Part shown: one piece after another, positions 5,464 through 7,097 of the stretch
Layout: each line of letters starts with the position of its first letter
Position numbering within the stretch: the stretch's first letter is position 1
Sequence record: DRR378314_1742
DNA: 64,000 bases
Strand: one strand, 5' to 3'
Notes under the pieces: model-generated
Seen by the model: only the letters and a program-made list of their open reading frames with translations
Databases searched by the model: none
What the model was told of the DNA's origin: nothing
Translations under genes and position numbers: made by a program

Positions 5464-6924
5464 TTACCCTTGCCGGTAGTTTGGTGCTTCCTGTGTGATC
5501 GCCACATCATGGACATGGCTTTCCTTCAGGCCGGCATTGGTTATCTTTACAAACTTAGCGCTGGATTGCAGATTTGCAATCGTTGCACTGCCTGTATAAC
5601 CCATTGCAGCTTTTAGTCCACCAACCAATTGATGAATAATGGCATTGGCAGGACCCCGGTGAGGAACCCGTCCCTCGATCCCTTCGGGAACCAGTTTCAG
5701 ATTGTCCGAAACCTCCTCCTGGAAATACCGATCTGCCGATCCGCGCGCCATAGCGCCAAGGGAGCCCATACCGCGATAATATTTAAATGACCGACCCTGA
5801 TAGAGGAAAACCTCGCCCGGGCTTTCATCGGTGCCCGCCAGCAAAGAGCCAACCATGGCACAGCTCGCACCGCCTGCCAGGGCCTTGGCCAAATCACCAG
5901 ACGTCTTGATGCCCCCATCGGCGATGATCGGAACGCCATACTTGGCGGCCACTTCATAGGCATCCATAATCGCTGTCAGTTGCGGCGTTCCAACACCAGC
6001 TACAATCCGGGTCGTACAGATTGATCCAGGACCAATCCCCACCTTAACCGCATCCACACCAGCGCCAATCAGGGCTTCCGTCCCATCGGCCGTTGCCACG
6101 TTGCCACCAATGACCTGAACATCCTTGCTGAGCTTTTTAACGCGGGTAACGGCCTCCAGAACCCGAGAGGAATGGCCATGCGCCGTATCCACCACCAACA
6201 CATCCACACCGGAGGCAATCAGTTCCTCGGCCCGTTCAATACCATCATCACCGATCCCGATGGCCGCGGCGACCCGAAGCCGCCCCTTATTGTCTTTAGA
6301 GGCATTGGGGAAAAGAGTTGATCGCTCAATATCCTTAACCGTGATCAGGCCGATACAGCGATAAGCATCATCGACCACCAGCAGTTTTTCAATCCGATGG
6401 CGATGCAGCAGGATTTTGGCTTCTTCCTGAGTGGCCCCTTCGGCAACAGTCACCAGATTGTCGCGGGTCATCAACTCATACACCGCCTGGCTTTCATCGG
6501 TTGCAAACCGCACATCCCGGTTGGTCAGGATCCCGACCAGTTTTCCGGTTTTCCGCTCGGTAACCGGAATGCCGGAAATTTTATTAACCTGCATCAGGTA
6601 CAGTGCTTCGGACAACGGCGCTTCGGGGGAAATCGTTAGGGGATTAACGACCATTCCAGCCTCAAATTTCTTGACACGCTGGACTTCATGGGCCTGTTCC
6701 TGAATGGACAGGTTCTTGTGAATAACGCCAATACCGCCAGCCTGCGCCATGGCAATCGCCATTGGCCCTTCGGTAACAGTATCCATCGCGCTTGAGATCA
6801 ACGGAATCCCAAGTTCGATCTTTTTAGTCAGTAGGGTATTTGTTTTGGCATGCGCCGGGAGAATGTCTGAGGCTGCGGGCTGCAGCAAGACATCGTCAAA
6901 CGTATAAGCTTCACGGATTTTCAT
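5464..6924 (-). CDS. guaB: IMP dehydrogenase
   Basis: TFDDVLL, CBS pair, catalytic [20 protein letters not shown] at 6924 follows AAGGAG. Confidence 0.99.
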
Positions 6925-6925
6925 A

Positions 6926-6956
6926 GCAACTCCTTGGGAATTGCAGCGCAATCATA
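6926..6956 (-). promoter_or_regulatory. guaB -10-like hexamer plus hairpin covering the Shine-Dalgarno
   Basis: TATGAT (6956-6951), then GCAATTCC-CAA-GGAGTTGC (6944-6926), an 8-bp stem containing the SD. The -35 match is weak. Confidence 0.5.
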
Positions 6957-7097
6957 ACGGCAAGTTTTAAAATTCCTAGACCTAAAATCACAGGTTTGAT
7001 TTTTTTTAAAAGTCGTGGCCGGGAATACCCGTTTTGGGGCTGAACCGTTCAGAAACCGGCCGCGCGACGAAACTATCTTGCGAGCCGGCGGACCAGC

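Follow-up and report, generated by a model that had tools for sequence, protein, structure and literature searches.

Inosine monophosphate (IMP) dehydrogenase, the product of guaB, acts at the branch between adenine and guanine nucleotides, and its control sets the GTP pool, on which ribosome synthesis, the stringent response and antibiotic tolerance all draw. The known control of bacterial guaB is exerted by proteins (PurR, DnaA, CRP and FIS in E. coli) and by guanosine tetraphosphate (ppGpp), and riboswitches are known on other purine genes. Here we describe the guaB leader in a stretch of 64,000 nucleotides (nt) from sequence record DRR378314_1742, which we refer to as the window. In this window, guaB is the minus-strand open reading frame (ORF) 5464-6924 with its ATG at 6924-6922, and its product is an IMP dehydrogenase according to TIGR01302 (626 bits; cut-off 481.5). 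We conclude that the segment preceding the gene is a real regulatory element, namely the guaB core promoter together with a hairpin at the 5' terminus of the RNA, in which the Shine-Dalgarno sequence is sequestered. An initial annotation had proposed that the choice between start sites a few bases apart, governed by GTP, decides whether this hairpin forms completely. We regard that mechanism as plausible but unproven, and give it slightly worse than even chances of operating at guaB.

The closest described system is that of the pyrC and pyrD genes of E. coli and Salmonella, in which alternative starts 2-3 nt apart are located 6-9 nt past the -10 element, and in which the two extra 5' bases, present only in the longer RNA, close a hairpin over the ribosome-binding site (PMC6524683; this paper and PMC5730371, PMC3424548, PMC2885671 and PMC11953324 are cited for excerpts throughout). 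The mechanism that the initial annotation had taken as its precedent is established for these genes. The same start spacing and the same arrangement of closing bases are predicted for the guaB leader. However, pyrC and pyrD are pyrimidine genes in which the choice is between C and G and follows the CTP/GTP ratio, whereas for the purine gene guaB the predicted choice is between G and A and would follow GTP/ATP.

In yeast, guanine nucleotides select between start sites of IMD2, which encodes IMP dehydrogenase, and one class of starts is unproductive (PMC3424548). The enzyme and the logic of start choice are the same as in the switch proposed for guaB, but the unproductive yeast RNAs are ended by the Nrd1-Nab3-Sen1 terminator and degraded, whereas those of guaB would be full length and poorly translated. 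Because the yeast and bacterial polymerases are unrelated, any such likeness is convergent. Attenuation of the IMD2 type was rejected for guaB, as candidate starts 2-3 nt apart leave no room for a terminator between them.

The guaB promoter of E. coli, PguaB, has an UP element and growth-rate-dependent control, with stringent control cited in the references, and is also controlled by CRP, PurR, DnaA and FIS (PMC2885671). It drives the same gene, and A/T-rich upstream DNA and a GC-rich discriminator are also present in the window. The two differ in that no CRP-, PurR-, DnaA- or FIS-type site was identified here, and in that the excerpts of PMC2885671 describe, for E. coli, no hairpin at the start site that involves the Shine-Dalgarno sequence. 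At some other promoters, the level of the first nucleotide, initiating ATP or GTP (iATP/iGTP; PMC6524683, PMC11953324), governs the output. Such promoters alter the amount of RNA made from a single start, whereas in the guaB model it is the kind of RNA, and hence its translation, that would be altered. The guaB leader belongs to no Rfam family. A search of the PMC open-access subset and bioRxiv, with subscription-only papers outside its reach, found no description of start-site switching for bacterial guaB. The initial annotation, to which such feedback was not known for guaB, did not mention that the same enzyme has a precedent in yeast IMD2 (PMC3424548).

Layout and folding of the guaB leader

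Read on the minus strand, positions 6956-6922 contain, in this order, TATGAT, TGCGCT, GCAATTCC-CAA-GGAGTTGC, T and ATG, which is identical to the layout from hexamer to start codon reported before. The features of the promoter and leader are the following.

5464..6924, minus strand: guaB (IMP dehydrogenase), assigned by TIGR01302
6951..6956, minus strand: -10-like hexamer TATGAT, from the sequence and the comparison of 35 leaders
6945..6950, minus strand: GC-rich discriminator TGCGCT, 6 nt in all 35 leaders
6926..6944, minus strand: hairpin GCAATTCC-CAA-GGAGTTGC, which sequesters the Shine-Dalgarno sequence (folds; 8 pairs in 35/35 leaders)
6937-6944, minus strand: hairpin 5' arm GCAATTCC
6934-6936, minus strand: loop CAA
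6926-6933, minus strand: hairpin 3' arm GGAGTTGC
6925, minus strand: T between hairpin and ATG
6930-6934, minus strand: Shine-Dalgarno sequence AGGAG, in the loop edge and 3' arm
6941..6944, minus strand: predicted start module G-C-A-A, invariant in 35/35 leaders (E. coli start rules; homologous starts in S. meliloti)
6965..6979, minus strand: CTAGGAATTTTAAAA, a block conserved upstream at the place of a -35 element; it resembles TTGACA poorly
7000..7007, minus strand: A8 tract upstream of the -10 hexamer (distance about 43 nt), from the sequence; possibly UP-element-like

Inspection of the sequence bore out what had been said of the hairpin: the 8-bp stem includes one U-G pair and covers the guaB Shine-Dalgarno sequence, with AGGAG lying in the loop edge and 3' arm; G6944 is the 7th base past the hexamer, and the next purines are A6942 (position 9) and A6941 (position 10). 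The candidate starts fall on the pyrimidine-purine steps T6945/G6944 and C6943/A6942. In E. coli, the modal start position is 7 bp after the -10 element, positions 6-9 are usable, and a purine with a preceding pyrimidine is preferred (PMC5730371); both steps satisfy this pyrimidine-purine rule.

The hairpin folds with -9.9 to -10.3 kcal/mol (z = -2.5), which is equalled by 3 of 200 shuffles, and it persists in the fold of the whole intergenic region. By itself, the modelled stability of the hairpin is only mildly unusual. The predicted cost of opening AGGAG depends on where the RNA begins, being 8.5 kcal/mol for a start at G6944, 5.6 for C6943, 3.5 for A6942 and 2.2 for A6941. Two bases at the 5' end thus make a predicted difference of 5-6 kcal/mol to how accessible the ribosome site is. 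These computed values agree with the earlier premise that a start at A shortens the stem and eases opening of the Shine-Dalgarno sequence. The hallmark of pyrC/pyrD-type control, a stable hairpin over the ribosome-binding site limited to the longer transcript, is also found in silico (8.5 versus 3.5 and 2.2 kcal/mol).

In the proposed mechanism, the segment would comprise guaB's own core promoter and a leader of about 22 nt. RNA polymerase would take TATGAT as -10 element, melt the 6-nt GC-rich discriminator, and initiate at one of the predicted start sites, either G6944 (position 7) or A6942/A6941 (positions 9 and 10). RNA starting with G would form the hairpin with all 8 bp at its 5' terminus, covering the Shine-Dalgarno sequence, and would be poorly translated, whereas RNA starting with A would lack the two closing G-C pairs and would be translated better. 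The relative share of G and A starts would follow the supply of GTP and ATP, such that high GTP would lower the synthesis of IMP dehydrogenase, and low GTP together with ample ATP would raise it, all without a regulatory protein. We infer three parts of this scheme: where transcription starts in this organism, that the choice of start depends on nucleoside triphosphates, and that it affects translation. If true, there would be a direct, protein-free feedback from the GTP/ATP ratio onto guaB. The pyrC/pyrD mechanism would have its first purine example, and yeast IMD2 a convergent bacterial counterpart at the level of translation. The element is small, sharply bounded and conserved across an order.

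Conservation of the leader and its promoter

The closest GuaB relatives are encoded by Sneathiella and other Sneathiellales genomes (83-92% identity), and the DNA of the window is that of a Sneathiella-like alphaproteobacterium. We searched 39 Sneathiellales genomes with the 20-mer that spans the hexamer, spacer and 5' arm, allowing up to 2 mismatches, and found it in 33. The guaB-adjacent copies are all located immediately 5' of guaB, and four other matches with 2 mismatches lie elsewhere. As for the six genomes without the 20-mer, two have variant leaders of the same geometry, in two the contig ends within guaB, and in two the query used did not find guaB. Genome G008 has the hexamer, spacing and hairpin of the others with a different spacer sequence. 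In genome G006, whose GuaB is 75% identical, CATAAA is followed by 6 nt and then by G-C-A-A-A; its 7-bp stem differs by a compensated A/U insertion and is lost from the folds of RNAs that begin with C or A.

The set used for comparison consists of 35 distinct Sneathiellales guaB leaders, including that of the window, G006 being the only guaB leader missed by the pattern. The hexamer is TATGAT in 33 of them and TATTAT in 2. The spacer between the hexamer and the first stem base is 6 nt in 35/35 leaders and also in the distant G006, and the discriminators are TGCGCG (16), TGCGCT (14), TGCGCC (2) and three single variants. The G-C-A-A start module is invariant in all 35, and each of the eight stem pairs is kept in all 35, the only changes being from G-C to G-U (3 leaders) and from C-G to U-G (3 leaders). 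Over the 28 nt formed by hexamer, discriminator and both arms, mean identity is 95%, versus 39% at the four-fold synonymous sites of guaB, which are saturated (465 pairs from 31 rows; L092, L241, L245 and L247, with a GuaB fragment of <300 residues, were left out). At the level of sequence comparison, this shows that the leader is under strong purifying selection. What argues strongly against a chance structure is that the hairpin is conserved (20-mer in 33/39 genomes, 8 pairs in 35/35 leaders). Moreover, the outer stem bases GCAA/TTGC are under no coding or Shine-Dalgarno constraint, yet they are invariant and do not covary, which points to a sequence-specific role of G-C-A-A in addition to pairing.

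The 20-mer and the upstream block are found at guaB only in each genome searched, barring the four 20-mer matches mentioned above; for the block CTAGGAATTTTAAAA, this was seen in 5/5 genomes. A regulon or operator motif was rejected on these grounds. A metagenome scan with a 15-mer pattern, which is too short, gave at least 119 stretches with no guaB leader among the matches listed, and one stretch that passed a loose filter was unrelated.

Several observations bear on the promoter. The TATGAT hexamer holds the two most important -10 bases and is fixed in position across leaders. In guaB genes of other Alphaproteobacteria, a comparable TATNNT hexamer is located 24-63 nt 5' of the start codon. 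Because TATGAT is kept in 33/35 leaders, with TATTAT in the other 2, at a constant 6 nt from the stem, the alignment supports that it behaves as a real -10 element. Identity among relatives is 55% in the 8 nt beside the hexamer and 80% in the 16 nt at the -35 position, and such a conserved-variable-conserved pattern is what a promoter gives. As in stringent and growth-rate-controlled promoters, the discriminator is GC-rich, being TGCGCT here and a GC-rich 6 nt in 35/35 leaders. An A6-A8 tract is present at equal distance in most relatives, and in several of them it is part of a hairpin followed by a T-run; the A8 tract at 7000-7007 could be an UP-element-like tract, part of an rlmE terminator, or both. 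The tract and the A/T-rich block are kept in place in relatives, their position with respect to a canonical UP element being only approximate. Likeness to rrn promoters was rejected, as the three rrn upstream regions of relative G007 that make up this comparison carry a canonical -35 and a different discriminator (three further fetched regions are interrupted by contig ends).

In the relatives L091 and L113, only 34 nt separate the end of a strong terminator-like site from the -10 element, which leaves room only for this promoter there. A strict terminator-like site upstream of guaB was found in 4/34 relatives (L107, whose upstream sequence is too short, was left out) and not in L005; a scan of 6800-7300 found none between rlmE, the preceding gene, and guaB in the window. 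These upstream sites give weak support to the view that guaB has its own promoter. We consider the promoter, the twin-start geometry and the hairpin to be well supported.

Outside this order, a TATNNT-like hexamer is located 20-69 nt before the start codon in 39/47 alphaproteobacterial guaB loci, corresponding to 37 distinct leaders. Past the hexamer, these 37 leaders have G at position 6 (32/37), C or T at position 7 (36/37), C at position 8 (32/37) and A at position 9 (33/37). A G-Y-C-A module 6-9 nt past TATNNT is therefore common to these leaders, though their stems are not that of Sneathiella. In 24 of the 32 usable leaders (38 distinct leaders minus six without G at 6/7 or A at 8-10), the G-start RNA pairs its first two bases at most 6 nt from the AUG, versus 16% in shuffles, and in folds a start at G makes the RNA on average 4.1 kcal/mol more stable than a start at A does. 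Because a class-wide pattern search gave mostly chance matches, we limit our claim, which is drawn from these alignments, to recurrence of the module in several lineages and do not extend it to conservation across the class.

Start sites have been mapped in S. meliloti 1021 (PMC3616915, supplement file 2, sheet S2). For guaB (SMc00815), these comprise an mRNA start at 836121 (first 3 nt GCC, coverage 258), another at 836124 (first 3 nt AAC, coverage 78), and a third, weaker one; they precede the start codon by 91, 88 and 16 nt, respectively. The RNA begins with G-C-C-A-A-C, which are the six bases after the discriminator in many other alphaproteobacterial leaders, and the G and A starts, 3 nt apart, appear to be at bases corresponding to the module. 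In addition, the G start is the 5' end of a 68-nt "cis-encoded mRNA leader" RNA, SmelC146 (836121-836188; PMC3616915), which suggests that the guaB leader is structured or attenuated in Rhizobiales too. For Methylorubrum DM4, the start-site supplement gives, as positions with no sequence, one guaB start that is 67 nt upstream and another, at 57 nt, that had been removed; that for Bradyrhizobium has no guaB, inosine or IMP dehydrogenase entry.

Structured inserts and alternative explanations

In 13/35 leaders, the 3-nt loop is replaced by 77-92 nt enclosed by the same stem. Examples of this long form, whose insert is absent from the window, are the following.

L009:2403-2503, long-form leader in a relative (Sneathiella chungangensis)
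L008:2404-2503, long-form leader in a relative
L112:1397-1508, long-form leader in a relative

A covariance model of these leaders gave one match per genome in 13/39 genomes, always at guaB. In the alignment of the insert, 90.1% of cells are paired, versus 26-48% when the partners are slid, and eight pairs change on both sides; covariation thus supports the helices. The long rows of the GuaB tree, 12 in number, all fall in one nested clade that also includes 1 short row, and the short forms are basal, so the insert looks derived and not ancestral; a single gain is the simplest reading. The loop is N-A-A in all 22 short-form leaders. A pseudoknot between the P3 loop and an AUAUAU stretch of the long form was not supported, since its 78% of paired cells show no covariation and are no better than shuffles.

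In the window itself, no structured ligand-binding domain is present, the leader consisting only of an 8-bp stem and a 3-nt loop. No Rfam family matched at E up to 10, either in 6800-7200 of the window or in the long-form leader, and the loci of nine relatives gave, at E up to 1, only tRNAs and one chance hit to a long non-coding RNA model away from the leader. In the main text of the paper describing 224 motifs (PMC5737381), the terms IMPDH and guaB do not occur. The insert is a candidate new riboswitch-like domain, and a candidate new structured RNA, on guaB. It shows that control has been built on the stem that covers the ribosome site, and the long-form relatives may represent a natural case of a regulatory domain added to a pre-existing Shine-Dalgarno hairpin. 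We tentatively put forward, while thinking it on the whole doubtful, the broader view that alphaproteobacterial guaB is tuned by a protein-free GTP/ATP sensor at the promoter, with G and A starts 2-3 nt apart of which only the G start gives the hairpin over the ribosome-binding site, and to which one Sneathiella clade would have added, in the hairpin loop, a new, unclassified structured RNA domain for control by a ligand or factor.

The start-site switch has to be weighed against other explanations of the same leader. The hairpin could be constitutive and lie on a promoter of the growth-rate or stringent type with essentially one start, where it would set a fixed low level of translation and/or protect the 5' end, while regulation would be transcriptional and rely, as it does at E. 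coli PguaB, on the discriminator with its high GC content and on A/T-rich DNA upstream. This agrees with the 6-nt GC-rich discriminator in 35/35 leaders, with the A-tract and A/T-rich block conserved upstream, and with E. coli PguaB being growth-rate-controlled and UP-element-dependent, with stringent control cited (PMC2885671); the invariance of the stem without covariation also fits a constraint at the DNA level. However, it leaves unexplained why the -10-to-stem distance is exactly 6 nt in 35 leaders and in G006, and why G-Y-C-A is retained in lineages with different stems, and S. meliloti uses both G and A. We consider a constitutive hairpin unlikely, but still a serious candidate. Alternatively, the stem could be gated by a trans-acting factor or ligand, such as a protein (possibly IMP dehydrogenase), a small RNA or a metabolite, with the 77-92-nt insert as an added ligand domain. 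That the same stem closes an insert found once per genome in 13/39 genomes and only at guaB, with the pairing (90.1% versus 26-48%) and the eight two-sided changes described above, would fit such gating, as would the N-A-A loop kept in 22/22 short forms. Yet a 3-nt loop on an 8-bp stem offers no ligand pocket, the insert is limited to one nested clade with the short form basal and looks derived, no candidate factor was identified, and no known RNA family in Rfam matches, which makes gating distinctly improbable.

Two further explanations concern the DNA around the start. If the RNA began farther upstream, by read-through from rlmE or from an unseen promoter, GGAATT in the upstream block (6976-6971) could act as an anti-sequestor competing for AATTCC, to which it is complementary, and the window has no terminator-like site between rlmE and guaB, with a strict one in just 4/34 relatives. 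But the changes seen in the block (TATGAA, TATTAA, TATGAT and TTGCAT) weaken this pairing on one side only, the terminator-like site 34 nt before the -10 element in L091 and L113 leaves room for the promoter described here and no other, and the full-length fold retains the Shine-Dalgarno hairpin; we hold an upstream start to be very unlikely. The palindrome ATTGC-GCN-GCAAT over the -10 element and the start might also be an operator bound by a dedicated repressor, a 5+3+5 arrangement present in the window and in 32/35 leaders. It is unique in each genome, which means that there is no regulon; in the window, 2 matches with at most 1 mismatch compare with 0.94 expected by chance, and three leaders (CTGCCT, CGCACG and TTCGCT) break the left arm while keeping hexamer, spacing and hairpin. 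An operator is the least credible of these explanations.

The start-site switch is favoured over a plain hairpin because of the fixed 6-nt spacing, the invariant G-C-A-A, the presence of the module in other lineages and the twin starts of S. meliloti. A number of points weigh against it. Initiation with a purine at the modal position 7 is normally efficient, and the switch would need it to be limited by GTP. Both Sneathiella start sites are predictions made from the DNA. As the initial annotation had cautioned, the -35 match is poor, and our consensus scan of 6800-7300 found no sigma-70-type promoter, whereas the rrn promoters of G007 are canonical (TTGACG-17 nt-TATAAA). Since only 4/34 relatives have a strict terminator and the window has none, some read-through from rlmE possibly also feeds guaB. 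The geometry of -10 element, G and hairpin that the initial annotation had suggested looking for in relatives is present in 35/35 leaders, but the covariation it had also named is not, as there is no compensatory double change in the stem among the 35 Sneathiellales leaders, and the invariance of the stem is compatible with a constraint at either the DNA or the RNA level and cannot separate the two. The structured loop insert of 13 relatives suggests other or additional control of the same stem.

The evidence from outside the order has weaknesses of its own. The rows of the wider alphaproteobacterial comparison are related metagenome-assembled genomes (MAGs) chosen by GuaB similarity and are not independent samples. 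The class-wide pattern search matched 80/401 genomes, but the reversed-pattern control was also frequent and only 4/30 sampled places were at guaB, of which three were recognized by protein motif and one (L286) by reading; L260 (G277) carries no claim alone. For S. meliloti, equating GCCAAC with the module depends solely on the "first 3 nt" column, and the leader is 88-91 nt long versus about 22 nt here. Twin starts are not special in that organism, in which about 40% of the genes have multiple starts, and the RNA was pooled over many conditions, with the G start having the higher coverage (PMC3616915).

Gene neighbourhood

On the minus strand, positions 1596-8917 are occupied by a cluster with the order ppx/gppA-like gene, rlmE, guaB, rsmB, a gene for a tetratricopeptide repeat (TPR) protein, a small ORF and guaA. 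Across the whole window, Rfam gave no matches at gathering score other than three tRNA genes. The neighbouring features are the following.

7814-8917, minus strand: ppx/gppA-like gene, 5' of rlmE
7098..7814, minus strand: rlmE, the gene 5' of guaB, separated from it by a 173-nt intergenic gap
4136-5440, minus strand: rsmB, starting 24 nt past the guaB stop
3552-4037, minus strand: TPR protein
3219-3530, minus strand: small ORF
1596-3143, minus strand: guaA (NF000848, 806 bits)
9142-9212, plus strand: tRNA gene (Rfam, gathering score)
14437-14508, minus strand: tRNA gene (Rfam, gathering score)
40729-40802, minus strand: tRNA gene (Rfam, gathering score)

On the AMP branch, a mirror-image, A-sensing element on purA was rejected: in five Sneathiellales genomes (L288-L292), purA is located directly 3' of the upstream ORF in 5/5, without a conserved leader. 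One contig labelled as belonging to a Pseudomonas marincola MAG (L004) has the Sneathiella leader, and its GuaB groups inside Sneathiella beside L003; this contig is probably mis-binned. Finally, guaB and rsmB look co-transcribed, and the guaB leader may therefore also set the expression of rsmB, and perhaps that of guaA.

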